Shown piece by piece: positions 2,772 through 24,198 of a stretch of 32,000 bases of DNA. This DNA is from Synechococcus sp. A15-28 (GTDB lineage: Bacteria; Cyanobacteriota; Cyanobacteriia; PCC-6307; Cyanobiaceae): NCBI RefSeq assembly GCF_014280175.1, contig NZ_CP047931.1, forward strand, positions 2,010,001-2,042,000. Direction: 5' to 3'. Below the pieces are notes generated by a model. It saw only the letters and a list, made by a program, of their open reading frames with translations, searched no databases and was not told the DNA's origin. The position numbers and the translations under genes are program-made. Each line of letters opens with the position of its first letter. Within the stretch, counting starts at the first letter, position 1.

Positions 2772-3175
2772 TGGCACAGGGTCGTCGAGTCGAGCGGGTC
2801 GCGGCCCTGATCCGCAAGGAAACCAGTGAACTGCTGATCAATGGCATCCGCGATGAACGGGTGCACCAAGGGATGGTGAGCATCACCGACGTGGAAGTCT
2901 CTGGGGATCTGCAGCACTGCAAGATCTTCGTAAGCATTTTTGGTGATCAGGCCAGCCAGCCGCAGGTGATGGAGGGGTTGCAGGCCGCCAGCGGTTACCT
3001 GCGCGGTGAACTCGGCAGGAGGCTGCAGATGCGCCGCGCGCCGGAAGTGGTGTTCCAGCTGGACCGCGGCATCGAGAAGGGCACCTCCGTACTGGGTCTG
3101 CTCAACAAGCTCGAGGATGAGCGCAAGGAGCGAGGGGAGATTCCGGCGGGAAGCGATGAGCTGCCGTCCGAGTGA
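2771..3175 (+). CDS. rbfA: Ribosome-binding factor A
   Basis: [17 protein letters not shown] ... [21 protein letters not shown] ... [29 protein letters not shown] is the canonical RbfA pattern. ATG 2771 is preferred; GTG 2768 is possible. Confidence 0.9.
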
Positions 3176-4757
3176 TCCGCTGCAGCGGCAGGTGGCCGAA
3201 CTGCTGGTGGTGCGCGCCAGCGGCCACCTCGATGATCAGCAACGCCGCTACCCCCAGTGGGAGCTCAGCAACCGCGAACTGCAGCGGCTGTTGAACAGCG
3301 GAGTGGGCGGGGTGATCCTGCTGGGCGGCAGCGCCATGGAACTGCAGCAGCGCACCCGCCAGCTGCAGGGCTGGAGCGATCAGCCCCTGCTGCTGTGTGC
3401 CGATGTGGAGGAGGGCGTCGGTCAACGCTTTGAAGGGGCGAGCTGGCTGGTGCCCCCCCTGGCTCTGGGGCGACTGCATCAGAACGATCCGGAACAGGCC
3501 ATCGCCCTGGCGGAGAGTTACGGCCACTGCACCGCAGACCAGGCCAGGCTCTGCGGCTTGAACTGGGTGCTGGGCCCGGTCTGCGACGTCAACAACAATC
3601 CGGCCAACCCGGTGATCAACGTGCGGGCATGGGGTGAAGACCCCACAACCGCTGGCGCTCTGGCCGCTGCTTTTCAACGGGGTCTGAGCCGTGGCGGCGT
3701 GTTGGGCTGCGCCAAGCACTTCCCGGGCCATGGCGACACCTCCAGCGATTCCCACCTGGACCTGCCGGTGCTGCCCCACAGCCGTGAACGGCTGGAGCAG
3801 CTGGAGTTCCCGCCCTTCCGTGCCGCCATCGCCGCCGGGGTCGACAGCGTGATGACCGCCCATCTGCTGCTGCCGCAGCTGGATCCCGAGCAGCCCGCCA
3901 CCCTGTCGAGCGTCGTGCTCACCGACCTGCTGCGCGGCACGTTGGGCTTCAACGGATTGGTGGTGACGGATGCTCTGGTGATGGAGGCGATCACCGCGCG
4001 CCATGGCCCCGCGGAGGCTGCGGTGCTGGCCTTTGAAGCCGGCGCGGATCTCATCCTCATGCCCGCCGATGCCGATGCCGCCATCTCCGGCATCAGCCAG
4101 GCCATTGCCCAGGGACGGATCCCGATCCAACGGCTGCATCAGGCTCTGAAACGTCGTCGTGAAGCGCTGGCGAAGGTGCAGCCGCCAGCCCCGGCACTCC
4201 CCATACCCACCCCTGAGGAACGGCAGCTGGAGCAGCATTTGGTGGCCGCCAGCCTGGAACAGTCAGGTCCTGCCACCATCCCTGCCGCCGCAGGCATCAA
4301 CCTCATCCGGGTCGATGCGGCCTGGCCCTGCCCCGCGCTCAACGGTTCAGCCCCGGCCCTGCGCTTACCAGAACAGCAGGGATACCGCAGCGTGGTGGTG
4401 CATGGCCTGGGGGTCTCCCCCTGGCAGGACGACCCCGACGCCCCCTTGGCCCTGGAGCGCTTGGGCGATGGCCCGATCGTGCTGCAGCTGTTTTTGCGGG
4501 GAAATCCCTTCCGCGGGGAACGCGACCGGCAGGAGCCCTGGTGCGCGGCCGTGCAACAGCTGCAACGGCTGGATCGGCTGGCCGGCTTGATCGTCTATGG
4601 CAGTCCCTACCTCTGGGAGGCGCTCCGCTCGATGCTGCACCCCTCGATCCCGGCTGGATTCAGCCCGGGGCAGATGCCGGAAGCGCAGCGCCAACTGCTC
4701 AGCCGTCTGCTGCAATCCCAGGCTAAACGCCCTGCGAGCCGCGACTTCACCGACTGA
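3156..4757 (+). CDS. nagZ: Glycoside hydrolase family 3 beta-N-acetylhexosaminidase (NagZ-like) with C-terminal extension
   Basis: GH3 motifs are present: [61 protein letters not shown] and GLVVTDAL. Start set at ATG 3156, overlapping the rbfA end by 20 nt. The track extension back to 3006 lies inside rbfA in another frame. Confidence 0.8.
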
Positions 4758-4792
4758 GCGGCCTAACCTCCCGCCAACCCGAGCCGCCGGCG

Positions 4793-5995
4793 ATGCTCAG
4801 CTTCTCCATGATCGTGCGCAACGAGGAGGCGCGGCTGGCGGATTGCCTGGCCTCTGTGCGGGAGCTTGCGGACGAGATGGTTGTGGTGGATACCGGCTCC
4901 ACCGACGCCACCATCGCCGTGGCCGAAGCGGCCGGTGCTCGCGTGGAACAGGTTGAATGGCCAGGCGATTTCGCCCCCGCCCGCAACACAGCCCTCACCT
5001 TTCTCAACGGGGACTGGGTGCTGGTGCTGGATGCCGATGAACAGCTGCGACCGGAGGTGATCCCCAGCCTCAAGGCCTTGATGGCCCAGCCCGATGTGCT
5101 GGTGATCAATCTGCTGCGTTACGAGGTGGGGGCCGCCATGGCGCCCTACTCCAGTGTCAGCCGTCTGTTCCGCCGCCATCCCGCCATCCGCTGGAGCCGG
5201 CCGTATCACTCGATGATCGACGACAGCGTCGGCGAGCTGCTGGCCAGCGAACCCCAATGGCGCATCGCCGACTGCAGCGAACCAGCCATCCTTCACGACG
5301 GCTACCGGCCGGAACTGCTGGCCGGCACCGACAAAGCCGAGCGCTTGCGCCAGGCCATGCAGAGCGAATTGGACACCCGGCCTGGTGATCCCTACGCCAG
5401 CGCCAAGCTCGGTGGACTGATGATCAGCGAAGGACAGCACGACCAGGCCATCCCGCTGCTGCGCCGCGGCCTGGATCAAGCCACAGGCGACAGCGCGGAA
5501 CGGTACGAGTTGCTGCTGCACCTGGGTCTGGCCCTCACTCCCAGAGATCCGAGCGGTGCCGTGGCCTGTTATCGCCAGGCTCTGGACATTCCCCTCGATG
5601 CCCGGATCAGCCTCGGGGCACGCCTCAACCTGGCGGCCCGGCTGATGGAGCAAGGCGAGCTCGATGAAGCCATCGCTCTCACCCAGACCGCCACCCAGCG
5701 GGCCCCGGAAGTGGCCCTCGGTTGGTACAACCTCGGCCTGATGCTGCGCCGCCGCGGCGACATCGCAGCGGCCCTTGAGGCCTACAGCCGCGCTGTGGAG
5801 CTCGACCCCGATAACGCGGCCTGCCATCAGAACCGCGCCGTCGCGCTGCTGCTGGGGGGTGACATCGAAGGGGCGCGCGCCGCCTTCCGCACCGCGATCA
5901 CCCTGCTGGAGACCCAGGGGCGACCCGTCGATGCCCAGGCCCTGCGCAGCAAGGCCCAGGGCATCGTCAAGCTGGACATGGAGCCCATCGCTTGA
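4793..5995 (+). CDS. Family 2 glycosyltransferase with C-terminal TPR repeats
   Basis: N-terminal GT2 signature (SFSMIVRNEEARLADCL ... VVVDTGSTD ... ARN ... VLVLDADE). The C-terminal half shows repeated TPR-like A/L/Y/G spacing (WYNLGLMLRRRGDIAAALEAYSRAVELDPDNAACHQNRA). Confidence 0.8.
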   Translation: MLSFSMIVRNEEARLADCLASVRELADEMVVVDTGSTDATIAVAEAAGARVEQVEWPGDFAPARNTALTFLNGDWVLVLDADEQLRPEVIPSLKALMAQPDVLVINLLRYEVGAAMAPYSSVSRLFRRHPAIRWSRPYHSMIDDSVGELLASEPQWRIADCSEPAILHDGYRPELLAGTDKAERLRQAMQSELDTRPGDPYASAKLGGLMISEGQHDQAIPLLRRGLDQATGDSAERYELLLHLGLALTPRDPSGAVACYRQALDIPLDARISLGARLNLAARLMEQGELDEAIALTQTATQRAPEVALGWYNLGLMLRRRGDIAAALEAYSRAVELDPDNAACHQNRAVALLLGGDIEGARAAFRTAITLLETQGRPVDAQALRSKAQGIVKLDMEPIA

Positions 5996-6780
5996 GCCAG
6001 CCGCTGCAGAACTGCACGGTGGTGGTGACCCGCGCCGCCGACCAACAGGGAGAAGCCAGGCGCCTGCTGCAAGCCCAGGGTGCGCAGGTGCTCGACCTCC
6101 CCGCTCTGGTGATCGGCCCCCCGGACGACTGGCGCCCCCTGGACGATGCCCTGGCGGAGCTGGAGGAGTTTCACTGGCTGGTGGTATCCAGCGCCAATGG
6201 GGTGCAGGCGGTGGAACAGCGCTTGCAACGCCAGGGGGGCAGCCTGTTGCGGCGACCGGCCAACCTGCGCATCGCCGCCGTTGGTCGCAAAACCGCCAGA
6301 GCCCTTGACGATCTCGGCGCAGAGGCGGATTTCGTGCCGCCAAGCTTCGTGGCCGACAGCCTGATCGAACACTTTCCCGTGTCCGGCTATGGCCTGCGGA
6401 TGCTCCTGCCGAGGGTGCAAAGCGGTGGCAGAACCGTGCTGGCGGAGGCCTTCGGGGAAGCGGGGGTGAGGGTGGTTGAAGTGGCGGCCTATGAGTCCCG
6501 CTGCCCCGACGCCATGCCGGATGGCACCGCCGATGCCCTGGCGGCTGGAACCGTGGACGCGCTGCTGTTCAGCAGCGGCAAGACGGCCGCCCACACGGCA
6601 CAACTGCTGCTGCAGCGCTTCGGGCCAGGCTGGGAAGAGCGGCTGGCCTCGTCGAAGATCGTGTCCATCGGCCCCCAGACCAGCCAGAGCTGCCGCCAGT
6701 CGTTCGGTCGCGTCGATGGGGAAGCCGATCCCCATGACCTGGAGGGGCTGGTGGACGCCTGCTGCCGGCTACTGAGGTGA
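5992..6780 (+). CDS. hemD: Uroporphyrinogen-III synthase
   Basis: HemD-like pattern: VVVTRAADQ ... WLVVSSANGV ... IAAVGRKTA ... LLFSSGKTA ... IVSIGPQT. TTG start at 5992 overlaps the upstream stop (TTGA). Confidence 0.8.
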   Translation: MSQPLQNCTVVVTRAADQQGEARRLLQAQGAQVLDLPALVIGPPDDWRPLDDALAELEEFHWLVVSSANGVQAVEQRLQRQGGSLLRRPANLRIAAVGRKTARALDDLGAEADFVPPSFVADSLIEHFPVSGYGLRMLLPRVQSGGRTVLAEAFGEAGVRVVEVAAYESRCPDAMPDGTADALAAGTVDALLFSSGKTAAHTAQLLLQRFGPGWEERLASSKIVSIGPQTSQSCRQSFGRVDGEADPHDLEGLVDACCRLLR

Positions 6781-7705: not shown

Positions 7706-9171
7706 CAAGCCACAGCTGCGTTGGTGGCGAGCCTAACTGGCTGATCCAGGATGGCGGCTGCCGCCAGATGGCCACTCATCGTGGCGCCTTCCATCGAATC
7801 GATGTAGTCCTGGCGGGTGTAACTGCCAGCCAGGAAGAAGTTCTGAATCGGCGTGCGCTGATCAGGGCGGTAGGGCTCCATGCCCGGAGCCTCGCGGTAG
7901 AGCGACTGCGCCAGCTTCACCACGTTGCTCCAGGTGAGCTTGAGATCGCGAGCAGAAGGGAACAAGGCACGCACCTGGCGATCGGTGTGGGCCACGATCT
8001 CGTCCACGGATTTGGGAATCCAGGGATCACCGGGGGTCAGCACACACTGCAGCAGGGACCCCTCTCCCTCCTTGCGGTAATCCTCCGGACTGGCCAGGGC
8101 CAGATCCGCAAAGCAGCTGAAATCCGCATCAGCGGTATACAGCAGATTGTTCAGACCGGTTGGCGTCGCCACATCCCGGCGCTGGGCGTCCTGCGATTCA
8201 CCCAGTTCCGTCACCCAGCCGTCGTAACGAAGCTGCACCGTGGCCACGGGAACCGCCTCCAGTTGATGGATGGCATCGAACTGGGGGAAGCGACGCCAGT
8301 CGTCCGGCAACAGCTTCTGGATCCCGGGCACATCGCAGGCGGCGAGATAGGCGTCAGCCTCCACACGGATGTCTCCCTCCGGTGTGCCCAGCTGCAGAGC
8401 GGTCACCTCGGGGGTGTCGCCATCGCTGTACTCCACCTGCTTCACCCGGTGGCGCAGATGCAAGGTGCCGCCGCGCTGCTGGATGTAATCGAGGATCGGA
8501 CCGGTGAGCCAACGGTGCGGCGATCCCTTGAGCAAATTGAGTTTGGAGGCTTCGGTCTTGGACGCAAACATCATGAAGATGGTGAGCATGCAGCGGGCCG
8601 AAATCGCCTCGCAATCGATGAACCCCAGCGCATAGGCGATCGGGTTCCACATGCGACGGATGCTTTCCGGGCTCCCGCCGTGGCCCACGAACCAATCCTG
8701 GAAGCTGACGGAATCCAACGCACGGATGGTGCGCATCGCCCCCTCGTAATCCACCAGGCCCCGCACGATCGGGCTCGTCCCCAGGGCCAGGGCATTGCGC
8801 AGCTTGTCGATCCAGCTGAGCTGTGGCGTGGTGAAGAACGCCTTGAGGCCGTTGAAGGGAGCCCCGATCGGGAAGCGGAAATCCAGTTCCCGCAGGTCAC
8901 CACCCTCGTTCACGAACAGGTGGGTGTGCTGCTTGGGCAGCAGGTTTTCAAAGGCGCCCACCTTCCGCATCAAGGCGAAGAGATTGGCGTAATTGAAAAA
9001 GAACACATGCAACCCCATTTCGATGTGGTTGCCGCCGTCATCAACCCAACTGCCCACCTTGCCGCCCATGAACGGGCGAGCCTCATAGAGATTCACCTTA
9101 TGCCCGGCATCCACCAGGTCCACCGCAGCGGAGAGGCCCGCGAGACCGGAACCGACAATCGCGACCCGCAC
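7705..9171 (-). CDS. crtQ: Zeta-carotene desaturase
   Basis: The N-terminus [24 protein letters not shown]...[23 protein letters not shown], together with [41 protein letters not shown] and [13 protein letters not shown]...[18 protein letters not shown], closely follows plant-type ZDS/CrtQ rather than PDS. Confidence 0.92.
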
Positions 9172-9243
9172 CTTGTGGTGTGCAACTGATGGCGACTCTA
9201 TGTATCAGGCTCCATAAAGTGAGGACATGAGCCTGCGTCATCA

Positions 9244-9636
9244 ATGACCTCAACCACCAGCCCAGCGCCGGCCCACACCGCCAAGGACGGCAAGGGCATC
9301 CTGATCACGGAACCCGCCATGCAGCAGCTGGCCAAGCTCTGTCGTGAGCAGGGCGATCAACAGGTGCTGCGGGTGGGGGTCCGCTCCGGGGGCTGCAGCG
9401 GCATGAGCTACACGATGGACTTCGTGCCGGCCTCCGACACCCTCGAAGACGACGAGACCTACGACTACGTCGCCGCCAACGGCCAGGGCTTCCGCGTGAT
9501 CTGCGACCCCAAGAGCCTGCTGTACATCTACGGCATGCAACTGGACTTCAGCACCGCTCTGATCGGCGGAGGCTTCAACTTCACCAACCCCAACGCCAGT
9601 CAGACCTGCGGTTGCGGCAGCTCCTTCGCGGTGTGA
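9244..9636 (+). CDS. Iron-sulfur cluster assembly accessory protein (HesB/IscA/SufA family)
   Basis: LRVGVRSGGCSGMSY and the C-terminal F.F.NPNA...CGCGSSF are the three-Cys HesB/IscA signature. Confidence 0.88.
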   Translation: MTSTTSPAPAHTAKDGKGILITEPAMQQLAKLCREQGDQQVLRVGVRSGGCSGMSYTMDFVPASDTLEDDETYDYVAANGQGFRVICDPKSLLYIYGMQLDFSTALIGGGFNFTNPNASQTCGCGSSFAV

Positions 9637-9684
9637 CCCAACGGCGCCGCGTGGGAATCTGAGGAGTGTTCAGCACGCGTCGCC

Positions 9685-10104
9685 ATGGAGTCCAGCCAGG
9701 AGAACCTGTTTGACCAGGCCATGGCCCGTTATCAGGCCGGAGCCAGAGCCGCCGAGATCCTGCCCGACTTCCTCAAGATCACCGAGATGGCGCCTCGCCA
9801 GGCCGCAGGCTGGACCTGCCTGGCCTGGCTGCAACTGCTCTGCGACCAACCCGAGGAGGCCCTGCGCTCGGCACGGTTCGCGGTGAAGCTCAGCCCCCAG
9901 GATCCCCAGGCCCGCATCAACCTGAGCCTGGCGTTGCTGGAGACGGATTCCAAGGGTGTGCGCGATCAGATCCAGATGGTGCAGCAGGTGCTGACCATGG
10001 CCCCCCAGATTTCCGATGACCTCAAAGGTGCCCTCGAGGACGGTCTGGTGCGGCGCCCGGGCTGGAAAGCGCTCGAAAAAGTGAAGTCCTGGCTCAACTT
10101 CTGA
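9685..10104 (+). CDS. TPR-repeat protein
   Basis: 139 aa with TPR-like repeats (GWTCLAWLQLLCDQPEEALRSARFAVKLSPQDPQARINLSLALL). Codon usage is consistent with neighbours. Confidence 0.6.
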   Translation: MESSQENLFDQAMARYQAGARAAEILPDFLKITEMAPRQAAGWTCLAWLQLLCDQPEEALRSARFAVKLSPQDPQARINLSLALLETDSKGVRDQIQMVQQVLTMAPQISDDLKGALEDGLVRRPGWKALEKVKSWLNF

Positions 10105-10131
10105 CCCATCTCGCGGCGGCGCATCCGATCC

Positions 10132-11301
10132 ATGGGACAGATCCTGCTGCTGAGCAACGGTCACGGTGAAGACGTCTCCGGCGCGCTGATCGGTCAGGCC
10201 CTTCAGTCCCTGGGGCATAGCGTTCAGGCCCTGCCACTGGCGGGGCTGGGCCGTCCCTACCAACAGGCCGGCATTGCCCTGCTGGGGCGCAGCCACGAAT
10301 TCAGCACCGGAGGCATCGGCTACACCAGCCTGCGCGGGCGGCTGACGGAACTGGTGCAAGGGCAGATCCTCTACCTGTTGCGACGCCTGCTGCGGCTGCT
10401 GCGCCACAGCCATCGCTTCGATCTGATCGTGGTGGTGGGGGATGTCATCCCGGTGATCGCCGCCTGGCTGACCCGCAGGCCGGTGGCCACCTATCTCGTG
10501 GCCTATTCGAGCCACTACGAAGGACGGCTGCGTTTGCCCTGGCCCTGCGGCGAACTCCTGGCCACCCCTCGCTTCCAGGCGGTGTTCAGCCGGGACCAGC
10601 TCACGGCGGACGACCTCACCACCCAGCTGCAACGTTCGGTGCGCTTCGTCGGAAACCCGTTCATGGACCCCGTGCTGGCGCCAGCCGCAGCGCTGCCCAC
10701 CGCCCGGCAACGCATCGGACTGCTGCCCGGCAGTCGCCGGCCGGAACTGGAGCACAACCTGCTGCTGCTGCTGCAATTGATCGAGAAGCTCCCCGTCGCT
10801 GCGGAGCTGAGCGTGGATCTGGCCCTGGTGGCGAGCCTGGAGGACACAGCCCTGCAGGCTCTGGCCGGCAGCGTCGGCTGGCGTCTGGAGCAGGGGGTGC
10901 TGAGCCGAGAAGACACCGTGCCGATCACCTTGCGGCGCGACGCCTTCCAATCCGTGCTGCAACACAGCGATCTGGTCATCGGCATGGCCGGCACAGCGAT
11001 TGAACAGGCCATCGGCCTGGCCAAACCCGCTCTGCAACTTCCAGGGGAAGGCCCCCAGTTCACCGCCCGGTTTGCGGAGGCACAGCGCCGGTTGCTGGGG
11101 CCAACGGTTTTCTGTGCCCCCGGCGACGCCGGTTCCCGCGACAACATCGCAGCCACAGCTGCGCTGGCGCTGGACTTGCTGAACCGCTCCCGCAGTGATC
11201 AGGAGCTGCACGAGCAGTGCCGCCGCGAAGCCAGCCGCCGTCTCGGAACAGCCGGGGGAGGCACAAGAATGGCAGCAGCCATCAGCGAACTCCTGCCATG
11301 A
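10132..11301 (+). CDS. Lipid-A-disaccharide synthase-related protein (LpxB-like GT-B glycosyltransferase)
   Basis: The opening ILLLSNGHGEDVSGALIGQAL, GLLPGSRRPE and the C-terminal GMAGTAIEQAIGLAKP resemble the cyanobacterial LpxB-related family as I recall it. The family call is from memory only. Confidence 0.65.
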   Translation: MGQILLLSNGHGEDVSGALIGQALQSLGHSVQALPLAGLGRPYQQAGIALLGRSHEFSTGGIGYTSLRGRLTELVQGQILYLLRRLLRLLRHSHRFDLIVVVGDVIPVIAAWLTRRPVATYLVAYSSHYEGRLRLPWPCGELLATPRFQAVFSRDQLTADDLTTQLQRSVRFVGNPFMDPVLAPAAALPTARQRIGLLPGSRRPELEHNLLLLLQLIEKLPVAAELSVDLALVASLEDTALQALAGSVGWRLEQGVLSREDTVPITLRRDAFQSVLQHSDLVIGMAGTAIEQAIGLAKPALQLPGEGPQFTARFAEAQRRLLGPTVFCAPGDAGSRDNIAATAALALDLLNRSRSDQELHEQCRREASRRLGTAGGGTRMAAAISELLP

Positions 11302-15499: not shown

Positions 15500-16468
15500 T
15501 CACAGCATCGGGTCCTGACGTGCGGGCATCGGGGCGGCGCCACTGAACATCGGTGTGGAGAGATAACGCTCGCCGTAGCTGGCGAGCATCACCACCACGC
15601 GCCGTCCCTGCAGCTCGGGCCGCTGTCCCAACCGCAGAGCCGCAGCCACGGCAGCACCACTGCTGATCCCACAGAGCAGGCCCTCCTCTCGGGCCAGCCG
15701 ACGGCCCACGTCCATGGCCTCCTCGTCGGACACGGTCATGACCGCATCGATCAGATCAAGATCGAGCACCGCAGGGACGAACCCGGCACCGATGCCCTGA
15801 ATGCGATGGGCGCCTGGCGCCTGGCCTGACAACACAGCACTACCAGCCGGCTCCACCGCCACCACCTGCAAATCCGGTTGGCGCTGCTTCAGCAACCGCG
15901 CACAACCGGTGATGGTGCCGCCGGTGCCGACGCCGGCCACCAGGGCATCCAGCTGGCCGTCACAGTCGTACCAGATCTCTTCAGCGGTGGTGCGCTCGTG
16001 CACCGCAGGGTTCGCCGGGTTGTCGAATTGCTGCAACAGATAGGCCTCAGGGATCTCCTCCACCAACTCCTTCGCCAGGGCAATGGCTCCAGCCATGCCC
16101 TGGGCACCATCGGTGAGCTGCAGCTCAGCGCCGTAGGCGCGCAGCATCGAACGCCGTTCAGTGCTCATCGTGTCCGGCATGGTGAGGATGAGCCGATAGC
16201 CCCGAGCGGCGGCGACCATCGCCAGGGCAATACCGGTGTTACCGCTGGTGGGCTCCACCAGCACGGTTCGTCCCGGCTGAATCGTGCCCTCCTGTTCCGC
16301 TGCCAGCACCATGGCGCTGGCAATTCGATCCTTCACCGAAGCCGAGGGATTGAAGCTTTCCAGCTTGGCGACCACATCGGCCCCACAGCCAAACTGCGCT
16401 GGAAGGCGGTTGAGACGAACCAGGGGCGTGCCTCCGATCAGGCCAGTGATATCGGAGGCGATGGCCAT
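15500..16468 (-). CDS. cysK: Cysteine synthase A (O-acetylserine sulfhydrylase)
   Basis: [11 protein letters not shown], the PLP-lysine motif [31 protein letters not shown] and GISSGAA are canonical CysK/CysM motifs. Confidence 0.92.
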
Positions 16469-16478
16469 GGCAGTGGGG

Positions 16479-18464
16479 TCAGAAACGGAAGACCGACTGA
16501 ATCAAACCGCCAAAAATGCCGAAGGTCGATGCGCCGTCCTGGTCCTGATCACCGCTGAGGTTGGCGGTGTAATGACCCAATGGACGCGACATCCAGAACA
16601 CCGATGGCGTGATCTGAATGTTGTCGGTGACCTGGAAGGAGGCGTAAAGCTCCACCAGATAGTTGGCATCGTTGGCGGTGTATCCACCAGCGAGCTCCGT
16701 CGCAAAGTTGGGCATGCCGAAGCTGACGCCGAGGTCGTTGCCGACATCAAACACGTCGTCCCATTTGAGGCCAACGAACCAGGATTGGCTGGCCACAGGG
16801 GAGTACTTGAAGAATCCCTTACCGGTGATGGCACTGCGGGCGTAGCCCACAGACACTGAGGGAACCCAGCCGGTCTCCTGGGGCACCCAATAACCATTCA
16901 AAGCGAAGTTGTGGCTGTTGCGCTCACTGCGCTCGGCGATGTAGTCGCCCTGATAGAGATCTTCTTCCGTCCAATTCCAGACGTCACGCCAACATTCATT
17001 GTTGAATGAATCATCCATCATGAAATTGGTGCCACGGCGCTGCCCCGTACCGCACTGGCCGTAGCGGTAAGCGAAGGCGACGCCGTATTCCTCTCCACCC
17101 CAGCCGGTCTGGATGAGGAAATTTCCGCGGGAGTTATTCGTGAACAGGCCACCGAGCACTGGATCACCGTCACCACCATCCTCAGCCACGTAGTTCATCG
17201 AGAGTGAGAAGGCCGGGTCACCCTTGTTTTCGGTCTTCTCCTTGTAAATCACTCCGAACAGCGCACCCGTGGCTTTGTTGTAAACGTTGGAAGCACCGGC
17301 CAGTCCGGTCCAATCGAGGATACGAGCACCGCCCCGGTTGTAGGCCGAGGGCCACATTCCCAGACTCTCGGTGTTTCTCGCCATCGGACCAACGATGAAG
17401 GTGAGCGAGTGATCAATCAATTCGTCATTCTTGAGAGGGAAGCGGTAATACAAACGACCCAAGCCAAGAATATCGTCCGTACAAGGTGCTGTACTGAGCT
17501 TCGTCAAAGCCACACCATCGCCAGCAAAGGCGTTATCGCAGAAGTTACCCGCCGTGAAACTTGCATAAAGAAGATCTTTCCCTGTGAAAGACGTCTTCAG
17601 GTTCAGCTTCTGTTCATAGTTAAAGGTGGCAGCGCCGTACTGACTGTTGTAAGCGCGGGTTCCTCCCCCTGAGCCATCTTTTTTCCAGGCTTTATGGTCC
17701 CGGAATTTACGGGAACGAATGTCTTTGTAGTGCTTCTCAAGCTTGGTCCCTTTGATGATCTCGGTACCGCTTTTGCCGTCTTTTTCCTTCAATGAACCAT
17801 CGCGGTTATGAACAGCCCGCCAGGCCTTGCGGGTCTTCTGCCATGAGCGGCTGTTCTGCGTCGAGCCGAGGGGCGACTCACGACCATCAATTTCGACAAT
17901 CTGGTGCTTCTGGTCGTAATCCCAGTAGTACTTGGAACCATCATTGGTGCCATAGGCCTTGGTGGAGCCCATGGTGAAGGTGCTCTTGCCCTTCAATTTG
18001 GTGGTGGTGGAGAACTGGCTGGCTTCCAGGGAGCCAACTCGATCCTCCAGCAGCATGATGCTGCCGGCCACAAAGTTGAGTTCGGATTCGAATTCCTTCA
18101 GCAGCTGCTCCACCTCTTCGGTCATCTCCGTGACGCGATCAAGGCAGGATGCCAACAGCGCCGCCGCTTCATAACGGGTGATCGGGATGTAGCCGCGGAA
18201 GCTGCCGTTGGGGTAGCCAGCCACACATCCATAGGTTTTTACCAACCTCACCAGGGCCTGATAGGCCCAGTCCGTGGGGTATACATCATTGAACTGATTA
18301 ACACTGGTGACCTGCTGGAGCAGTTGCTTGGCTTGTTCAAGATCGAGGGTCGCAGAGTAATCCGAAACCGAGTCAATGTTGAGGTCGGCAGCTTGTGCCG
18401 AAAGGGGAGCAATCAAAAACGTCAGTGCTGCTGGAGCGACCAAAAGGTGCTGGAGCAGTTTCAT
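16479..18464 (-). CDS. Outer-membrane porin 1 (SLH domain + coiled coil + OprB-like beta-barrel), with a unique 94-aa basic insertion
   Basis: Signal peptide [25 protein letters not shown]; SLH motif [28 protein letters not shown]; heptad-like linker; barrel ending ...[10 protein letters not shown]. Start at ATG 18464; the upstream track extension covers the 5'UTR. Confidence 0.88.
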
Positions 18465-18666
18465 ACCAATCCCCTCAACTTCCTGCAGGAAGCATTTCAA
18501 CAACAAACTGAAGGTACCGGACGTGGGGTGTGGTGCTAGTCCATTAACCCACCGTTAAACACAATAAAAAAGCCCCCCTGATAGGGGGGCTGATCTGTGT
18601 GAGGAACAAGTCTGAAAACCCGACCGAAGTCGGGCCGTTGAATCAGAACTTGAAGACGGTCTGAAC
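18375..18666. repeat. Repeat R1, copy A (porin-2 last codons + Yfr1-like module + porin-1 promoter/5'UTR + signal-peptide codons)
   Basis: Aligns by eye with 20418-20708 (offset about 2042-2044). The central 70 nt are nearly identical. The porin-1 5' part is roughly four-fifths identical. Confidence 0.85.
18563..18636 (-). ncRNA. Yfr1-like RNA module, copy 1 (also the terminator region of porin 2)
   Basis: Minus strand: GGCCCGAC-UUCG-GUCGGGUU hairpin, then UUCAGACUUGU-UCCUCACAC-AGAUC unpaired, then AGCCCCCC-UAUCA-GGGGGGCU hairpin plus UUUUU. The motif shares 9 of 11 nt with the Yfr1 core ACUCCUCACAC and the architecture is the same. Confidence 0.5.
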
Positions 18667-20148
18667 GACGCCACCCCACTGAGACGCATCATCCACACCC
18701 TGAGACTGCTCAGGAAGGTAGAAGACTGCAGGAATGACTGAGATTTTGTCAGCCACCTTCAGCTTGAGGGAAGCTTCGATAGCAAGTTCAGGGGAATCAG
18801 GGTCATCGCCCTTTTGAGAGACAACGTACTGGGGGGCACCGAATCCGACAGCAAGCTTATGGCTTGTCTTTGCCAGCTTGTCCCACTGGAAACCAACCAT
18901 CCAGCTAGCAAGTTCTTCAACGTCAGAACCCTCAAGGGAGGAGAATCCATAACCAGCGCTGATTGAAGGAATCAGACCAGTCTCAGAAGGCTTCCAGAAA
19001 CCGTTGAGAGCAAAGTTATTGGAGTAGACATCGGTGCCCTTAGCGCAACTTTGCTCCTTAAAGAAGCCAGTTCCAAAACCTGCTTTGCACTGACCGTAGC
19101 GATAGCCGAAGGCAACACCCCACTTTTTAGATCCGTAGCCAATCTGGGCAGTCGTATTAGCACGTGAGTTGGAGCCGAACATGCCACCCGCGGTGGGATC
19201 GCTGTTCTCTGCTTCTCCAGCATCGGCGACATAGTTCACGGCAACAGTGAACTTAGGGTCCCCTTTAGCTACCTTCTGCTTCCAGATCAAGCCAACCAAA
19301 CCGCCGGTTTCTTTGTTGTAGACACCAGGTGTGCCCCAGTGACCACCAAACATGTTGAGGGTCTTCACTTTGTAAGCCGAGGGCTTCATACCCAAGCTTT
19401 CAGTATTCCGAGCCAGAGGGCCTACAATCGCGGTCAGGCCTTTTGCAACAGGGAAGCGATAGTAGAGACGATCAACTTCCATGACGTTTCCAGACATTCC
19501 GGAAACATCCAGCTTGCGCAATCCACCGGAGAAAGCAGACCCATCCTTCATGTTGCCACCGCGCAGGCGGGTGAAGAGAAGATCCTTACCAGTGAAAGAA
19601 GTCTTCAGACCAAGACGCAAGTCATAAGAGAAACTCAAGGCGTCATAGGCAGATTTGTCTGCGTCAGCCTCAGAATTAATGGCACCTGTAACGAAGGTAG
19701 CCTTACCTTTCAGCTTGGTGGTGGTGGAGAACTGAGTGGCTTCCAGTTCGCCAACGCGAGCTTCCAGACCGTCCACGCGGCCGCGGATCACAGCCAGCTC
19801 GGTTTCGAATTCTTTGATCAGACGACGCAGCTGATCGGTCACCTCGGTGATGCGGTCGAGGCAAGCGTTCAGCAGGGCAGCCGCTTCATAGCGGGTCATG
19901 GCCCGGTTGCCACTGAAGGTGCCGTTGGGGTAACCGGCGACGCAGCCGTAACGCTCGATCAGGTTGGCGAGTGCCTGGTAGGCCCAGTCAGTCGGGTAGA
20001 CGTCGGAGAACTGGGTGATGCTGGTGACCTGCTCTTCGGATGCCGAGTAGTCGGACACACCGTTGATGTTCAGGTCTGCGGCGTTGGCGCCGGAGGCCAG
20101 GAGGCCTAGGGCGGCAGGCGCTACCAGCAGTTGCTGGAAGAGTTTCAT
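18643..20148 (-). CDS. Outer-membrane porin 2 (SLH + coiled coil + OprB-like barrel)
   Basis: Signal peptide [23 protein letters not shown]; SLH motif [28 protein letters not shown]; C-terminal ...VVQTVFKF. ATG 20148 has GAGGA 6 nt upstream. The GTG 20160 extension would begin inside the SD. Confidence 0.9.
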   Translation of the reverse strand: MKLFQQLLVAPAALGLLASGANAADLNINGVSDYSASEEQVTSITQFSDVYPTDWAYQALANLIERYGCVAGYPNGTFSGNRAMTRYEAAALLNACLDRITEVTDQLRRLIKEFETELAVIRGRVDGLEARVGELEATQFSTTTKLKGKATFVTGAINSEADADKSAYDALSFSYDLRLGLKTSFTGKDLLFTRLRGGNMKDGSAFSGGLRKLDVSGMSGNVMEVDRLYYRFPVAKGLTAIVGPLARNTESLGMKPSAYKVKTLNMFGGHWGTPGVYNKETGGLVGLIWKQKVAKGDPKFTVAVNYVADAGEAENSDPTAGGMFGSNSRANTTAQIGYGSKKWGVAFGYRYGQCKAGFGTGFFKEQSCAKGTDVYSNNFALNGFWKPSETGLIPSISAGYGFSSLEGSDVEELASWMVGFQWDKLAKTSHKLAVGFGAPQYVVSQKGDDPDSPELAIEASLKLKVADKISVIPAVFYLPEQSQGVDDASQWGGVVQTVFKF

Positions 20149-20225
20149 GAGATTCCTCACACCAAAATTGAGGGAAGTGGACAGAGAGTCCTACAGGAAA
20201 ATACTGGTGAAGGAAAAGTCTGCAC
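19707..20225. repeat. Repeat R2, copy A (porin 2 N-terminal third + 5'UTR)
   Basis: Identical to 21875-22393 at offset 2168 except G/A at 20002/22170, G/A at 20197/22365, and a few changes beyond 20210. Weaker similarity continues to about 20290. Confidence 0.92.
20152..20162 (-). promoter_or_regulatory. Porin 2 Shine-Dalgarno region with GUGUGAGGAAU box (predicted Yfr1 / Yfr1-like pairing site)
   Basis: mRNA sense is UUUUGGUGUGAGGAAUCUC-AUG. The box is complementary to GUUCCUCACAC of the modules at 18597-18607 and 20640-20650. Confidence 0.55.
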
Positions 20226-20376
20226 AGGAGGCCGCACTGTTATGTGTCCATTACTACGCCTTAACCAGTTTAAGCTTAGGTTAAATAACTAGGTTGAAGG
20301 TTGTTAGCCAAAGACAACCCAGCTCACAAAAGGTGGGTTGAGGAAGAAAGCACAAGTAGAGATTCTTCGTTGCTAA

Positions 20377-20506
20377 TTAGAAAATGAAGTTGGACTTCAC
20401 ATAAGCACCGTCAACATAATGTTGAGATCCGCAGCTTGTGCTATTTGAGACCAATCAAAAATGTCAGGGCTGCCGGTGCGACCAAAAGGTCCTGGAGAAG
20501 TTTCAT
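20377..20506 (-). pseudogene. Remnant of a fifth porin: porin-1-like signal-peptide codons fused to porin-4-like last 14 codons
   Basis: From ATG 20506 it reads [21 protein letters not shown]-stop, compared with porin 1 [30 protein letters not shown]. Out-of-frame AQAADLNI codons are then joined at about 20418-20421 to YVDGAYVKSNFIF-TAA, compared with porin 4 DYVQGAYVKTTFTF. A degenerate copy of the porin-4 terminator follows at about 20320-20345. Confidence 0.7.
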
Positions 20507-20708
20507 ACTCATCCCCTCAAATTCCTGCAGGAAGCATTACAACAACAAACTGAAGGCACCGAACTTGGGGAGTTGTGCTAGACCCCATTAACCCATTACT
20601 AAACACAATAAAAAAGCCCCCCTGACGGGGGGCTGATCTGTGTGAGGAACAAGTCTGAAAACCCGACCGAAGTCGGGTTATGAATCAGAACTTGAAGACG
20701 GTCTGAAC
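20418..20708. repeat. Repeat R1, copy B
   Basis: See copy A (18375-18666). Confidence 0.85.
20607..20680 (-). ncRNA. Yfr1-like RNA module, copy 2 (also the terminator region of porin 3)
   Basis: Minus strand: AACCCGAC-UUCG-GUCGGGUU, then UUCAGACUUGU-UCCUCACAC-AGAUC, then AGCCCCCC-GUCA-GGGGGGCU plus UUUUU. It differs from copy 1 only at the base of hairpin 1 (AA vs GG, both able to pair with UU) and in the loop of hairpin 2. Confidence 0.5.
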
Positions 20709-22316
20709 TACACCGCCGAACACACCAACGGACTTGTCGTCGGGAGTCTCGAATCCGTAAGGACGAGAAAGCCAGTAAATCGCAGGGGTTACAGCAATTT
20801 TGTTGGTGACCTGGAACTTGTACCAGAGCTCCATGGCATAGTTGCCATCGGCAACAAAATCACTTTCGCCTTTGCGATCAACCTTAGTCACGAACCGTGG
20901 CTGACCAATAGCAGCTCCAAGGGCGTTCTTCTTCTGGAAAACATCATTCCAAGTAAGACCCACCATCCAAGAGGCCATCTCACGGATTTCGGTCGCATCC
21001 TCCCAGTCATCGTTGCCATTGCTGTAGGAAGCACCAACACCCGCACTAATGGAAGGAATCATGCCTGATTCCTCAGGGCGCCAGAAGGCATGGAGTGACC
21101 AGTTGTGGCTATCGGCATCAGAACGAACTTCTTTGCCGTCTTTATTTTCAACGGTGCAAGAAGTGTCGCCCTTACCAGCGAACTCTGTACCAGTACGGAA
21201 TTTAGCTCCGCACTGTCCGTAGCGATAACCAGCGGCAAGGCCCCATCTCTTGGTTCCGTAGGCAATCTGGCTGGTAATGTTCGCTTCGGAGTTATCGGTC
21301 ATGAAGCCACCCGAATTGGGGTTGCTATCTTCACCCTCTCCGGAGTCAGCAATGTAGTTAGCGGCAAGAGTCCAGTAAGGATTGCCCTTTCCTGCGCTCT
21401 TCTTGTTGGTGTAGATCAGACCGAAGCCGCTGCCAGTTTCCTTGTTCCAAACGCCGGGGGTTCCCAGAGAACCACCGAAGAAGTCGAGAACCTTCTGGCC
21501 ACCCTTAGCATAAGCACTGGCCTTGTAGCCCATCATTTCGGTGTTGCGGGTCAGAGCACCGATCTGAGCCTTAAATCCGCTGCCCAGGGGGAATCGATAG
21601 TACAAACGATCAATCTCAACAGCGTTGCCGCCAGGAGCACCAGTGTCAAGCTTGTTCAAGCCAACACCGTTGCCATCCCAAACCGAGGCATCGCCCTGGT
21701 TGCCGACACGTAGGCGAGTGAAGAGCAAATCCTTACCAGTGAAGGACGTCTTCAGACCCAGGCGCAGGTCATAACTGAAGGTGAAAGCGCCGTACTCAGC
21801 GTTGTAGTCATCCTTCATATTGCCAGGGTTATCACCAAGAGCTTTGGTGGCACCCATGACGAAATTCGCCTTGCCTTTCAGCTTGGTGGTGGTGGAGAAC
21901 TGAGTGGCTTCCAGTTCGCCAACGCGAGCTTCCAGACCGTCCACGCGGCCGCGGATCACAGCCAGCTCGGTTTCGAATTCTTTGATCAGACGACGCAGCT
22001 GATCGGTCACCTCGGTGATGCGGTCGAGGCAAGCGTTCAGCAGGGCAGCCGCTTCATAGCGGGTCATGGCCCGGTTGCCACTGAAGGTGCCGTTGGGGTA
22101 ACCGGCGACGCAGCCGTAACGCTCGATCAGGTTGGCGAGTGCCTGGTAGGCCCAGTCAGTCGGGTAGACATCGGAGAACTGGGTGATGCTGGTGACCTGC
22201 TCTTCGGATGCCGAGTAGTCGGACACACCGTTGATGTTCAGGTCTGCGGCGTTGGCGCCGGAGGCCAGGAGGCCTAGGGCGGCAGGCGCTACCAGCAGTT
22301 GCTGGAAGAGTTTCAT
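20685..22316 (-). CDS. Outer-membrane porin 3 (SLH + coiled coil + OprB-like barrel)
   Basis: The first ~150 residues are identical to porin 2. The barrel is divergent and ends ...GGVVQTVFKF. ATG 22316 has GAGGA upstream. Confidence 0.9.
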   Translation of the reverse strand: MKLFQQLLVAPAALGLLASGANAADLNINGVSDYSASEEQVTSITQFSDVYPTDWAYQALANLIERYGCVAGYPNGTFSGNRAMTRYEAAALLNACLDRITEVTDQLRRLIKEFETELAVIRGRVDGLEARVGELEATQFSTTTKLKGKANFVMGATKALGDNPGNMKDDYNAEYGAFTFSYDLRLGLKTSFTGKDLLFTRLRVGNQGDASVWDGNGVGLNKLDTGAPGGNAVEIDRLYYRFPLGSGFKAQIGALTRNTEMMGYKASAYAKGGQKVLDFFGGSLGTPGVWNKETGSGFGLIYTNKKSAGKGNPYWTLAANYIADSGEGEDSNPNSGGFMTDNSEANITSQIAYGTKRWGLAAGYRYGQCGAKFRTGTEFAGKGDTSCTVENKDGKEVRSDADSHNWSLHAFWRPEESGMIPSISAGVGASYSNGNDDWEDATEIREMASWMVGLTWNDVFQKKNALGAAIGQPRFVTKVDRKGESDFVADGNYAMELWYKFQVTNKIAVTPAIYWLSRPYGFETPDDKSVGVFGGVVQTVFKF

Positions 22317-22393
22317 GAGATTCCTCACACCAAAATTGAGGGAAGTGGACAGAGAGTCCTACAGAAAAATACTGGTGAAGCAAAAGCGATCAC
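21875..22393. repeat. Repeat R2, copy B (porin 3 N-terminal third + 5'UTR)
   Basis: See copy A (19707-20225). Confidence 0.92.
22320..22330 (-). promoter_or_regulatory. Porin 3 Shine-Dalgarno region with GUGUGAGGAAU box
   Basis: Identical to the porin 2 site (part of repeat R2). Confidence 0.55.
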
Positions 22394-22475
22394 AAGGGTC
22401 CGCACAATTTTGTGTCTATTACTACACTTTAAACAATTTAAGGCAAGTTTAAAGGCCAAAGTGGCAGTTAAAGGC

Positions 22476-22505
22476 AAAAAAAACCCACCTCATAAGAGGT
22501 GGGTC
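22476..22505 (-). terminator. Intrinsic terminator of porin 4
   Basis: Minus strand: ACCCACCU-CUUAUG-AGGUGGGU followed by UUUUUUU, about 38 nt after the porin 4 stop (22543). Confidence 0.75.
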
Positions 22506-22542
22506 GGAAAAGAAAGAACTAGTGGAGGTTCTTCGTTGGCGA

Positions 22543-23994
22543 TCAGAAGGTAAATGTGGTCTTCACGTAAGCACCTTGGACGTAATCACTTGAAAGATCG
22601 CCGGAATACTCATCAATGATGAAGTAAGTCGGCGTGACGGTGATGTTGTCGGTAACGGCAAACTTATAGAAGATTTCCCACATCATGTTGTAGTCGTCTT
22701 CGATTTTAGGAGCCTGACCGATGGCTGTGCCGAATGAGTTACCTTCAATGCCAACATCAGACCACTCAAAACCGGCGTACCAGCTGGTGATCTCTTCGTC
22801 TGAATCTTCAGGGTTAGACAATGAGTAACCACCACTCACAGAAGGAATGATACCTGAATCTGCAGGTGCCCATGCTGCAGCAATGCTGAAGCCATGACGG
22901 CTGTCACCAGCTTCAGCAGCTGCCTTGTTGGTGCCGATGGTCAGGCCAACATTTTGCGCGTAGGCATAACCAACTTGAGCCAAGAAGCTACCTTCAGCGA
23001 CTTCACCTTCATAGAAAAGCTGCCAAGAAGATGTCGAACCGGTTTCATCACGGCCAATGCCCGTACTGCTTCCATCCCATGCGACGTAGTTGCCGCTGAG
23101 TTTGAAACCAGAGTCTCCAAGCGTATAAATACCACCCAAGCCGGCGCCGGTGCTAGCCAGGTTGTTGGTTGCCCAGGCACCGCCATAGGTGAAGAAGTCC
23201 AGCAGCAGGTCGGAGGGGTAGAAGGTTGCATAGCCGGCGTACATACCAGGGTCATCCGTCCTCACCACAGGACCAGCTGTCACCGTCAGGTTCTCACCAA
23301 CAGGGAAGGTGTAGAACAAGCGACCGATTTTGACGGTGTTACCGGAGGACATGGCGGTCTCAACAAAGGTGAGACCTTCATCCCAGACGGAGGGACCGAA
23401 GTTACCGGAACGCAGAACGGTCGTCAGCATGTCCTTACCCGTGAAGGACGTCTTCAGAGCAAGACGAAGGTCGTAGTTGAAGGTGAGTGCCTCACCCTCA
23501 TCATCGTCGAAACCTTCAGCAGCACCAAAGACCCAAGCGGAGTAACCCTTCAGCTTGGTGGTGGTGGAGAACTTGGTCGCTTCAAGTTTGCCGACGCGAG
23601 CCTCGAGACCGTCGACTTTGCCGGCGATCATTGCGAGTTCTTTCTCGAACTCAGAAATAAGACTCTTGAGTTGATCGGTCACCTCGGTGACGCGATCGAG
23701 GCAGGCATTCAGCAGGGCAGCCGCTTCATAGCGGGTCATGGCCCGGCCACCACGGAAGGTGCCGGTGGGGTAGCCGGCCACACAGCCGTACTGCTCCACC
23801 AGGTTGCTCAGAGCCTGGTAAGCCCAGTCGGTGGGATAAACGTCAGAAAACTGGGTGACGCTGGTGACCTGATCCTTCTTGGAAGAAGAGGAGTACTCAG
23901 CAACACCATTGATGTTGAGCTCGGCGGCATTGGCACCGGAGGCCAGAAGGCCAAGGGCGGCTGGAGCCACCAGCAATTGCTGGAAAAGCTTCAT
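22543..23994 (-). CDS. Outer-membrane porin 4 (SLH + coiled coil + OprB-like barrel)
   Basis: Signal peptide [23 protein letters not shown]; SLH motif [28 protein letters not shown]; the most divergent and acidic barrel, ending ...AYVKTTFTF. Confidence 0.9.
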   Translation of the reverse strand: MKLFQQLLVAPAALGLLASGANAAELNINGVAEYSSSSKKDQVTSVTQFSDVYPTDWAYQALSNLVEQYGCVAGYPTGTFRGGRAMTRYEAAALLNACLDRVTEVTDQLKSLISEFEKELAMIAGKVDGLEARVGKLEATKFSTTTKLKGYSAWVFGAAEGFDDDEGEALTFNYDLRLALKTSFTGKDMLTTVLRSGNFGPSVWDEGLTFVETAMSSGNTVKIGRLFYTFPVGENLTVTAGPVVRTDDPGMYAGYATFYPSDLLLDFFTYGGAWATNNLASTGAGLGGIYTLGDSGFKLSGNYVAWDGSSTGIGRDETGSTSSWQLFYEGEVAEGSFLAQVGYAYAQNVGLTIGTNKAAAEAGDSRHGFSIAAAWAPADSGIIPSVSGGYSLSNPEDSDEEITSWYAGFEWSDVGIEGNSFGTAIGQAPKIEDDYNMMWEIFYKFAVTDNITVTPTYFIIDEYSGDLSSDYVQGAYVKTTFTF

Positions 23995-24000
23995 GGGGGG

Positions 24001-24012
24001 TCCTCACACAGA
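24001..24012 (-). promoter_or_regulatory. Porin 4 Shine-Dalgarno region with UCUGUGUGAGGA box
   Basis: mRNA sense is UUUUCUGUGUGAGGACCCCCC-AUG. There are 12 contiguous Watson-Crick pairs with UCCUCACACAGA of the modules. Confidence 0.55.
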
Positions 24013-24198
24013 AAATGGGCGCAACAACGCCACTTAGACCTCATAAGGCTTTACTAAGCTTTAACCAAGCAATCCTGTGCCAGCTCCCTTAATGACTGGT
24101 AACAGGTGTCACAGAACACGCCTGAAAGCGTTCACTACGGACATGAAATTGATTCGTGCGGGCCTCCACCCACAGTGGGGCAGCCCCTTGTGCGCTCC

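Follow-up and report, generated by a model that had tools for sequence, protein, structure and literature searches.

Porin mRNAs of the marine cyanobacterium Synechococcus sp. A15-28 carry a nine-nucleotide box, GUGUGAGGA, over the Shine-Dalgarno (SD) sequence. We consider it very probable that this box is a conserved docking site, on Som-type porin mRNAs, for RNAs that expose the seed of the small RNA (sRNA) Yfr1. The region analysed is a 32 kb stretch of the A15-28 genome, referred to throughout as the window. Here, four tandem porin genes are encoded on the minus strand, between 16.4 and 24.0 kb. Three of the genes, porins 2, 3 and 4, have the box and porin 1 does not. The box is deeply conserved, specific in its occurrence, constant in its position over the SD, homologous to an experimentally validated Yfr1 site and predicted to be accessible. 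From these properties we infer repression of the porins in A15-28, and which RNA acts.

A box complementary to the Yfr1 seed covers the ribosome-binding site of three porin genes

The products of all four porin genes have an SLH domain and an OprB barrel (Pfam). They also match the NCBIfam model NF033921, 'por_somb / iron uptake porin', with scores of 195-292 bits (cut-off 100). The box is located at positions 20154-20162 for porin 2 (18643-20148, 501 aa, ATG at 20148), 22322-22330 for porin 3 (20685-22316, 543 aa, ATG at 22316) and 24001-24009 for porin 4 (22543-23994, 483 aa, ATG at 23994). In each case, the box is on the minus strand and over the SD. The distance to the AUG is 5 nt for porins 2 and 3, and 6 nt for porin 4.

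An exhaustive search of both strands found five copies of the corresponding DNA string, GTGTGAGGA, in 32 kb. The expected number is 0.31, and at least five copies were present in none of 100 shuffled sequences. Three of the copies are the porin boxes. The other two (18597-18605 and 20640-20648) are reverse complements of the box, reading UCCUCACAC in RNA, and lie in the porin 2 and porin 3 3' untranslated regions (UTRs). We refer to these 3' elements as modules. The original prediction had noticed no further occurrence of the 9-mer in the window, and there is none. Similarly, the 7-mer sub-seeds GTGTGAG and TGTGAGG are found only at box and module sites, except for one TGTGAGG at position 24534.

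Complementarity between boxes and modules extends beyond the 9-mer. The window sequence is ATTCCTCACAC at 20152-20162 and 22320-22330, which in mRNA sense (minus strand) is GUGUGAGGAAU. At 24001-24012 it is TCCTCACACAGA, or UCUGUGUGAGGA in mRNA sense. Against porins 2 and 3, the pairing of the module segments GUUCCUCACAC and UCCUCACACAGA comprises 10 Watson-Crick pairs and 1 G-U pair; against porin 4, there are 12 pairs, all Watson-Crick. These coordinates and pairings, as originally predicted for porins 2-4, are exact to the base, and the proposal that the box overlaps the sole SD-like element of each leader is also supported. Calculated hybrid energies with the module are -18.6 kcal/mol for porins 2 and 3, -21.8 kcal/mol for porin 4 and -10.0 kcal/mol for porin 1. 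With the bare Yfr1 undecamer, ACUCCUCACAC, they are -15.2, -14.9 and -10.7 kcal/mol, respectively. The window boxes pair with the modules over 11-12 bp, compared with 9 bp for the undecamer.

In 31 cyanobacterial genomes, the Yfr1 undecamer is conserved without change, in an unpaired segment flanked by two stem-loops (PMC2190773). Its positions 3-11 have the 9-mer as their reverse complement. In Prochlorococcus MED4, Yfr1 represses the som porins PMM1119 and PMM1121, by 3.0- and 2.7-fold respectively, through pairing at the ribosome-binding site (RBS). The substitution UCCU>AAAA in Yfr1 abolishes repression of both (PMC2796815). Yfr2 restores porin expression against Yfr1 in the MED4 system (PMC6778093), and porin homologues of Nostoc are also Yfr1 targets (PMC6974561). 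MED4 and Nostoc are the only organisms with reporter-fusion tests of repression by Yfr1 and its loss on seed mutation. We defined a target site as contiguous complementarity to the unpaired Yfr1 seed, within -39 to +19 of the start codon and covering the SD. Porins 2, 3 and 4 are complementary to UCCUCACAC at 9/9 positions, in a stretch that ends 5-6 nt before the AUG. Porin 1 has no such site.

The leader of the PMM1121 reporter is given in an oligonucleotide table (oligo 17) as GTCCCTAATATTGTGTGAGGCAATTT-ATG-AAGCTTTTC or, written as RNA, GUCCCUAAUAUUGUGUGAGGCAAUUU-AUG-AAGCUUUUC (PMC6778093). The validated site, UUGUGUGAGGCAAUUU-AUG, has the same box as the window porins, with essentially the same spacing. 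The pyrimidine-rich 5' end of the PMM1121 leader is also common to the leader of porins 2 and 3, UUCCCUCAAUUUUGGUGUGAGGAAUCUC-AUG, and the PMM1121 protein begins with MKLF, as do the window porins. By these likenesses, the window boxes are homologous to the experimentally validated Yfr1 site of PMM1121. Hence, occlusion of the RBS by an RNA bearing UCCUCACAC is well founded.

The window leaders are of two classes. In class A, represented by porin 4, a hairpin (GGCGUUGUUGCGCC, 24018-24031, minus strand) just upstream of the box is followed by a U-rich single strand and then by the box itself. The porin 4 orthologue of CC9605, Syncc9605_2367, has a mapped transcription start site (TSS) 38 nt before the ATG and 2 nt before the hairpin. 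By homology, the porin 4 hairpin is probably the 5'-terminal stem-loop of the mRNA, and the box would therefore sit in an open stretch between this stem-loop and the AUG. Class B leaders, of porins 2 and 3, have the form (U/C)CCUC(A/U)AUUUUGGUGUGAGGA. A cis-acting anti-SD hairpin in class B leaders (CCUCA...UGAGG) was considered and rejected. Helix lengths were 4.82 for the real leaders and 4.82 for shuffled leaders, and only pyrimidine richness remains.

Conservation and specificity of the box in picocyanobacteria

The leaders of porins 2 and 3 are identical across the 45 nt upstream of the ATG. A 300-nt stretch encoding the N-terminal part is 98% identical (19680-19979 compared with 21848-22147), and the barrels diverge. 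Since porins 2 and 3 are recent duplicates, the three boxes amount to only two independent cases within the window, and independent support for the box comes from other genomes.

We assembled 80 porin loci from picocyanobacterial genomes which, including the window, total 1.19 Mb. The sample covers Synechococcus of several subclusters, Cyanobium, Vulcanococcus and one Prochlorococcus. A profile built from the four window porins detected 150 porin open reading frames (ORFs), 134 of which have a resolved ATG. The exact 9-mer is present within 12 nt of the start in 101/134 porin genes. On the porin sense strand there are 104 copies in total, 101 of them at porin RBSs, where about 4 per strand would be expected from base composition. 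The remaining three are at a porin gene with a GTG start, before a DnaJ-domain gene (locus L018) and in an intergenic region (locus L007). Among approximately 780 non-porin ORFs sampled, a single one has the exact 9-mer at its RBS. That the 9-mer might be common at unrelated RBSs, which would have undermined the original prediction, is not borne out in this sample.

In 84 non-redundant porin 5' UTRs, the nine box positions have an information content of 1.4-2.0 bits and the flanks have less than 1 bit. The spacer between box and ATG is mostly 4-5 nt. Note that these leaders were preselected for one mismatch or fewer to the box, as is true of 119/134 leaders; hence, it is the difference between box and flanks that is informative. 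Taken together, these comparisons show the box to be porin-specific and not generic SD context, at a site that is nearly invariant across the picocyanobacterial radiation. The sole non-porin RBS box (L018, 4101-4109) is 7 nt before the ATG of a DnaJ-domain gene that follows cysK. This gene may be an additional target in that lineage.

A reciprocal element in porin 3' untranslated regions

Module A (18565-18636, minus strand) is in the 3' UTR of porin 2. It consists of a stem-loop, SL1 (18636-18617, CCCGAC-UUCG-GUCGGG type), the motif UCCUCACAC (18605-18597), and a terminator (18591-18571) with its U-run. Module B (20609-20679, minus strand), in the 3' UTR of porin 3, has SL1 at 20679-20660, the motif at 20648-20640 and a terminator at 20634-20615. 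The modules begin 6-7 nt past the stop codons, and UCCUCACAC is 36-37 nt past the stops of porins 3 and 2. Minimum free energy (MFE) folding predicts, for both modules, a stable UUCG-type stem-loop, a 25-28 nt unpaired stretch containing UCCUCACAC and a strong intrinsic terminator. The probability of the motif being unpaired is 0.78-0.82, with a weak 4+2 bp stem around it, and the distance from SL1 to the end of the U-run is approximately 72 nt. A terminator scan of the porin 4 3' end found a plain terminator (22505-22482) without a module. Neither modules nor boxes had an Rfam match at the gathering score in the window, although Rfam 15 may not include a Yfr1 model. Weak Rfam matches to the modules at E <= 10 (JA04, anti-hemB and RsmY) were dismissed as unrelated terminator look-alikes.

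Elements of this type recur in the other loci. Culturable strains that are candidates for sharing the window layout include Synechococcus CC9605, where the 3' UTR of Syncc9605_2366 is at about 2176107-2176189 of CP000110.1 (minus strand), WH7803 and A15-62. All 32 of the 32 sense-strand copies of UCCUCACAC are 8-60 nt past a porin stop codon and before a terminator. The motif, with no more than one mismatch, is present in 73/148 porin 3' regions. In an unbiased k-mer count, CCUCACA is the commonest 7-mer of porin 3' UTRs (69/147 non-redundant sequences), outranking even the terminator sequence GCUUUUU. The background is 0.009 per 90 nt, corresponding to approximately 50-fold enrichment. Across 63 non-redundant copies, the predicted probability of being unpaired is 0.91 for the motif and 0.53 for the rest of the 3' UTR (p = 5e-12). 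In 8 marine module copies, SL1 pairing is kept through compensatory changes and the terminator is conserved. Hence a conserved seed lies between the stop codon and the intrinsic terminator of the same mRNA, as in 3' UTR-derived sRNAs.

Variations on this arrangement were also seen. Two tandem copies of the motif, CCUCACAC, precede the terminator in L004 (9676-9705) and L017 (6001-6030). In freshwater Cyanobium-type loci L020, L023, L026 and L028, a long stem, CCAGCCAGAUCAAC...UUGAUCUGGCUGG, presents the motif in its loop, about 55 nt past the stop codon of a class A porin. The loop motif is the full ACUCCUCACAC in L020, L023 and L028, and UCUCCUCACAC in L026. This stem, with its loop motif, is the structure described for Yfr10, here in a porin 3' UTR. 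In the open-access literature, including the main Yfr1, Yfr2 and Yfr10 papers, our searches turned up no mention of porin 3' UTRs with a Yfr1 motif. The Northern probe for a Yfr10-like RNA of WH8102, CAGCCAGGGTTCGATCTCTTC (PMC6778093), had no match in the loci, and one metagenome scan returned five unrelated coding matches. Note that WH8102 porins are not among the listed porin homologues.

Could the module itself be the main regulator, responsible for auto- and cross-regulation of porins 2-4? We regard this as a credible alternative, to be held tentatively. With the porin promoter driving its transcription, the module could exert regulation by either of two routes. In the first, a stem-loop/seed/terminator sRNA of approximately 70-85 nt is excised and represses the mRNAs of its own porin and of the paralogues in trans, providing feedback from the 3' UTR. 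In the second, the module folds onto the 5' box within its own transcript, by 5'-3' UTR pairing. The placement, enrichment, predicted exposure and compensatory changes described above all favour this reading, as does the longer pairing of the window boxes with the module than with the undecamer. Furthermore, no -10-like element was seen by eye before SL1, which fits an origin from the 3' UTR.

Against this, modules and boxes do not covary in their flanks within a locus. The duplex energy is -16.1 for own-locus pairs and -16.15 for cross-locus pairs (p = 0.41), and other loci do not preserve the longer pairing (11-12 bp) of the window. A small excess of flank extension, 0.75 versus 0.67 pairs for own- and cross-locus combinations (p = 0.012), was set aside as tiny and not to be trusted given the relatedness of the sequences. 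Variants in the core are mostly uncompensated; boxes reading GUGUGAGAA occur with UCCUCACAC modules in L001, L005, L006 and CC9605. In addition, the box occurs without a module in porin 4 and in most class A porins. The box is also more strictly conserved than the module. Hence, the box is constrained by something else, most likely Yfr1. Finally, we found no evidence of the module accumulating as RNA; the module-bearing CC9605 gene Syncc9605_2366 has no listed TSS (mdRNA-seq), and its reads are low, in part of the Red Sea dataset. We conclude that a regulatory role of the module is a well-motivated hypothesis, prompted by strong conservation of sequence.

A possible relationship of the modules to Yfr2

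A second explanation is that the 3' UTR motif is a docking site, or sponge, for the Yfr1 antagonist Yfr2 (Rfam Cyano-1), or a mimic of Yfr1, and that canonical Yfr1 is the only RNA to which the 5' boxes respond. On this view, Yfr2 would be titrated by porin mRNAs, or would control them via their 3' ends. We consider this unlikely, even though the module consensus suits it. In 72 copies, from loci L001-L080 and the window, the consensus is C-UCCUCACAC-AC, with C at -1 in 44/72, A at +1 in 37/72 and C at +2 in 44/72. The Cyano-1 consensus begins uugUGUGUGAGGAGu, and the module consensus is fully complementary, over 12 nt, to its segment GUGUGUGAGGAG. Porin boxes, with G at +1 in only 3/120 cases, have no partner to offer the C at -1. 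By this comparison, the consensus module flanks fit Yfr2/Cyano-1 better than they do porin boxes. Consistent with such a role, Yfr2 binds the motifs of Yfr1 and Yfr10 with higher affinity than mRNA targets do (PMC6778093).

The modules of the window argue the other way. They are off consensus, with U at -1 and AG at +1/+2, and their match to a Yfr2-type sequence is limited to 10 nt. Porin leaders suit them better, with 11 pairs for porins 2 and 3 and 12 for porin 4. In the MED4 Yfr2 pull-downs, enrichment of the peaks at the 3' end of PMM1119 was not reproducible, with values of 1.0 and 5.4 in the replicates, and common descent from Yfr1 might be enough to explain the extended consensus.

An Rfam scan found no copy of Cyano-1 (RF01701) in the window. 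There is one near a porin gene elsewhere. In L007 (Synechococcus MIT S1220), a Cyano-1 gene (10072-10138; 56 bits, gathering score 41) lies downstream of a porin gene, at a distance of approximately 360 nt, and has the porin box sequence, UGUGAGGA, at its 5' end. About 100 nt upstream of the Cyano-1 gene there are two more box-like copies, GUGUGUGAGGU and GUGUGAGGAGG (9943-9985).

Other explanations for the box

The box might be only an extended RBS, a translation enhancer or a site for protein binding, and complementary to Yfr1 and the module only incidentally. Certainly, GAGGA is a functional SD. Most porin 5' UTRs are also pyrimidine-rich upstream, as are some S1-dependent leaders. However, the GUGUG half of the box is not complementary to the 16S rRNA 3' end, where the anti-SD sequence is CACCUCCUUU, and yet it is invariant. 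The best explanation for this invariance is pairing with an sRNA seed. Moreover, the exact reverse complement of the box is about 50-fold enriched in the 3' UTRs of the same genes, and the box complement is the ultraconserved Yfr1 seed. Pairing at the homologous MED4 site is also backed by mutational evidence, including compensatory changes (PMC2796815). We consequently hold an RBS-only function to be very improbable. That the matches are a functionless by-product of recent duplication can practically be dismissed: porins 2 and 3, with their 5' UTRs and modules, are indeed recent duplicates, but porin 4 has the same box in a different class of 5' UTR, and box and module recur in 80 genomes, across several genera, with unrelated flanks.

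Porin 1 and the history of the locus

Porin 1 (16479-18464, minus strand, ATG at 18464) is a long paralogue of 661 aa with a large insertion. As originally predicted, its initiation region (18465-18492, minus strand) has no matching box. Instead, a palindrome, CUUCCUGCAGGAAG, is followed by the SD GAGGGG; the sequence upstream of the ATG reads CUUCCUGCAGGAAGUUGAGGGGAUUGGU. The absence is conserved. Orthologues of porin 1 at 96, 85, 71 and 66% identity, plus that of L003, are all without the box, so that it is missing from six porin 1 lineages (the window, L003, L086, L087, L088/L089 and L090). Escape of porin 1 from control is likely, and the box-less state is a stable, conserved trait of the paralogue.

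The porin 1 leader has features of its own. The palindrome (18479-18492), which is conserved, is beside the SD and an ACCUUC stretch is upstream (approximately 18500-18520), also in L086 and L087. In the MFE fold, the ACCUUC stretch pairs with the SD region and the probability of being unpaired is near 0 over most of -20 to -1. The folded leader may be a separate cis-regulatory structure.

A cysK-like gene (15500-16468) is 10 nt beyond the porin 1 stop codon, consistent with the suggestion that porin 1 heads a cysK operon. It is followed by a DnaJ-domain gene and then PMT/TPR genes. Porin 1 is present only in some lineages and most relatives have no such gene; in these, including L091 and L093, cysK directly follows the module terminator. 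The segments concerned are 9560-9625 in L001, 9745-9801 in L091 and approximately 13390-13433 in L093. The intergenic gaps that hold the module are 110-122 nt and, in L001 and L091, the cysK ATG is about 25 nt after the terminator U-run. Expression of cysK-dnaJ-PMT in these three loci probably depends on read-through of the terminator, or on a promoter inside the module. In L090, from a metagenome-assembled genome (MAG), a porin-1-like gene (8001-9983, 66% identity) is accompanied by a 1440-aa D5_N primase / DNA polymerase A gene (2381-6703) and several small ORFs. This context looks phage-like or mobile-element-like.

Downstream of module B, a dead copy of the porin 1 5' UTR and first codons (20449-20584, minus strand) is 88% identical to 18407-18542. 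This copy is the scar of a tandem duplication behind porins 2 and 3. Its survival points to recent tandem duplication of the unit comprising porin, module and start of porin 1, or else to gene conversion of that unit. The closest relatives are open-ocean metagenome contigs, one from the Bermuda Atlantic Time-series Study (BATS). In L092, a MAG with a porin 85% identical to porin 4, a 124-aa cysK fragment (10675-11049) is between class A and class B porins. This is a further sign that the porin locus is prone to duplication and rearrangement.

Discussion

We return to the box as a docking site for RNAs exposing the Yfr1 seed. In our model, such an RNA would pair with the box over 9-12 bp, across the SD and 5-6 nt from the AUG. 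Binding of the 30S subunit would then be blocked, and porin translation would fall. The primary partner is most likely canonical Yfr1, trans-encoded outside the window. Yfr2/Cyano-1, with GUGUGAGGA at its 5' end, would compete for the seed and so relieve repression. Through their 3' UTR element, porins 2 and 3 probably supply the Yfr1 network with a seed copy of porin origin, either as a processed 3' UTR fragment or still attached to the mRNA. Porin 1, inserted between module and cysK, and without a box, would be outside seed control.

Several points weigh against this interpretation. Approximately one quarter of the porin genes in the loci are without an exact box, some having the variants GUGUGAGAA or GUGUGAGGU. 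Porin 1 itself has a 7-pair partial match to the Yfr1 seed, UGAGGGG with CUCCUCA (-10.7 kcal/mol). The presence of a canonical Yfr1 gene in the A15-28 genome is assumed, from Voss et al. 2007 (PMC2190773). In the literature, we found no experiments on Yfr1-porin control in A15-28 or any marine Synechococcus. Lastly, sliding duplex-energy scans of the window, with either the module or MED4 Yfr1, were non-specific in this GC-rich DNA, and some unrelated sites equalled the boxes. Because such scans do not discriminate, our argument rests on the seed, its position and its conservation, and not on energy.

The original prediction combined box, modules and porin 1 in a two-tier circuit, with porins 2-4 cross-regulated by Yfr1 and/or the modules and porin 1 exempt. 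The half concerning Yfr1 and the box is published biology for homologous genes, found here in a new organism, and the exemption of porin 1 is conserved. The half that makes regulators of the porin-borne modules stands as hypothesis only. The circuit is, as a whole, a reasonable hypothesis and not a result.

What might this mean? In marine and freshwater picocyanobacteria, about half of Som-type porin mRNAs have a 3' UTR Yfr1-seed element, CCUCACAC, and more than three quarters have the RBS box. We put forward, with some reservation, that porin transcripts are both targets and sources, or sponges, of the Yfr1/Yfr2 network. If so, there would be feedback at the level of the porins and cross-talk between paralogues, with box-less paralogues like porin 1 exempt. 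'Yfr10-like' elements, so far described as being without synteny, would gain a consistent genomic home. Should the module be active, an RNA circuit, with porin messages regulating one another and communicating with Yfr1 and Yfr2, would determine the outer-membrane permeability of some of the most abundant ocean phototrophs. With the box, an sRNA-porin interaction published for Prochlorococcus is carried over to marine Synechococcus, which is useful confirmation and not new in kind. The less expected, and potentially important, part is the reciprocal anti-box in the porin 3' UTRs of many genomes.

Comparison with known systems

Regulatory 3' UTRs of comparable design occur in other bacteria, among them those of ApcZ of Synechocystis (PMC8136909) and of NarS and MalH of enterobacteria. 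OppZ and CarZ of Vibrio cholerae are 3' UTR-derived sRNAs, and the icaR mRNA of Staphylococcus aureus is an example of 5'-3' UTR pairing. Like all of these, the modules place a seed between the stop codon and the mRNA's own terminator, complementary to the RBS of the same or a related mRNA, an arrangement that provides for feedback or cross-regulation of genes with linked functions. The likeness to these 3' UTR systems is an analogy of design and not homology.

Yfr2 (Cyano-1, RF01701) has a 5' single-stranded motif, UGUGUGAGGAG, that is the porin box sequence. Both are partners of the Yfr1 seed. However, Yfr2 is a free-standing anti-Yfr1 sRNA and the box is part of an mRNA leader.

With the Yfr1 / Yfr10 family (Voss et al. 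2007, PMC2190773; Steglich et al. 2008, PMC2518516; Lambrecht et al. 2019), the modules share a 5' stem-loop, the unpaired seed UCCUCACAC and a Rho-independent terminator. As in canonical Yfr1, two stem-loops flank the unpaired motif in both modules, the second being the terminator. The differences from canonical Yfr1 are several. The window modules, GUUCCUCACAC, match 9/11 undecamer positions, with GU instead of AC, and so do not contain ACUCCUCACAC. Their spacer is approximately 25-28 nt, not 16-20 nt, and their length is approximately 72 nt, not 54-69 nt. They directly follow porin stop codons, not being between guaB and trxA, and have no evident promoter of their own. Unlike Yfr10-like RNAs, which are described as being without conserved synteny, the modules are consistently 3' of porin genes.

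The closest parallel is control of PMM1119 and PMM1121 by Yfr1 in MED4 (Richter et al. 2010, PMC2796815; Lambrecht et al. 2019, PMC6778093). Both systems involve tandem paralogues of the same SLH and OprB family, with the MKLF N-terminus, and in both the box, GUGUGAGG, is identical and equally far from the AUG. They also share the predicted mechanism, in which an unpaired UCCUCACAC seed sequesters the RBS by antisense pairing. The window differs in being from a marine Synechococcus, known here from sequence alone, with four paralogues, one of which, porin 1, is without the box. It differs, too, in that two of its paralogues bear the seed in their own 3' UTRs.

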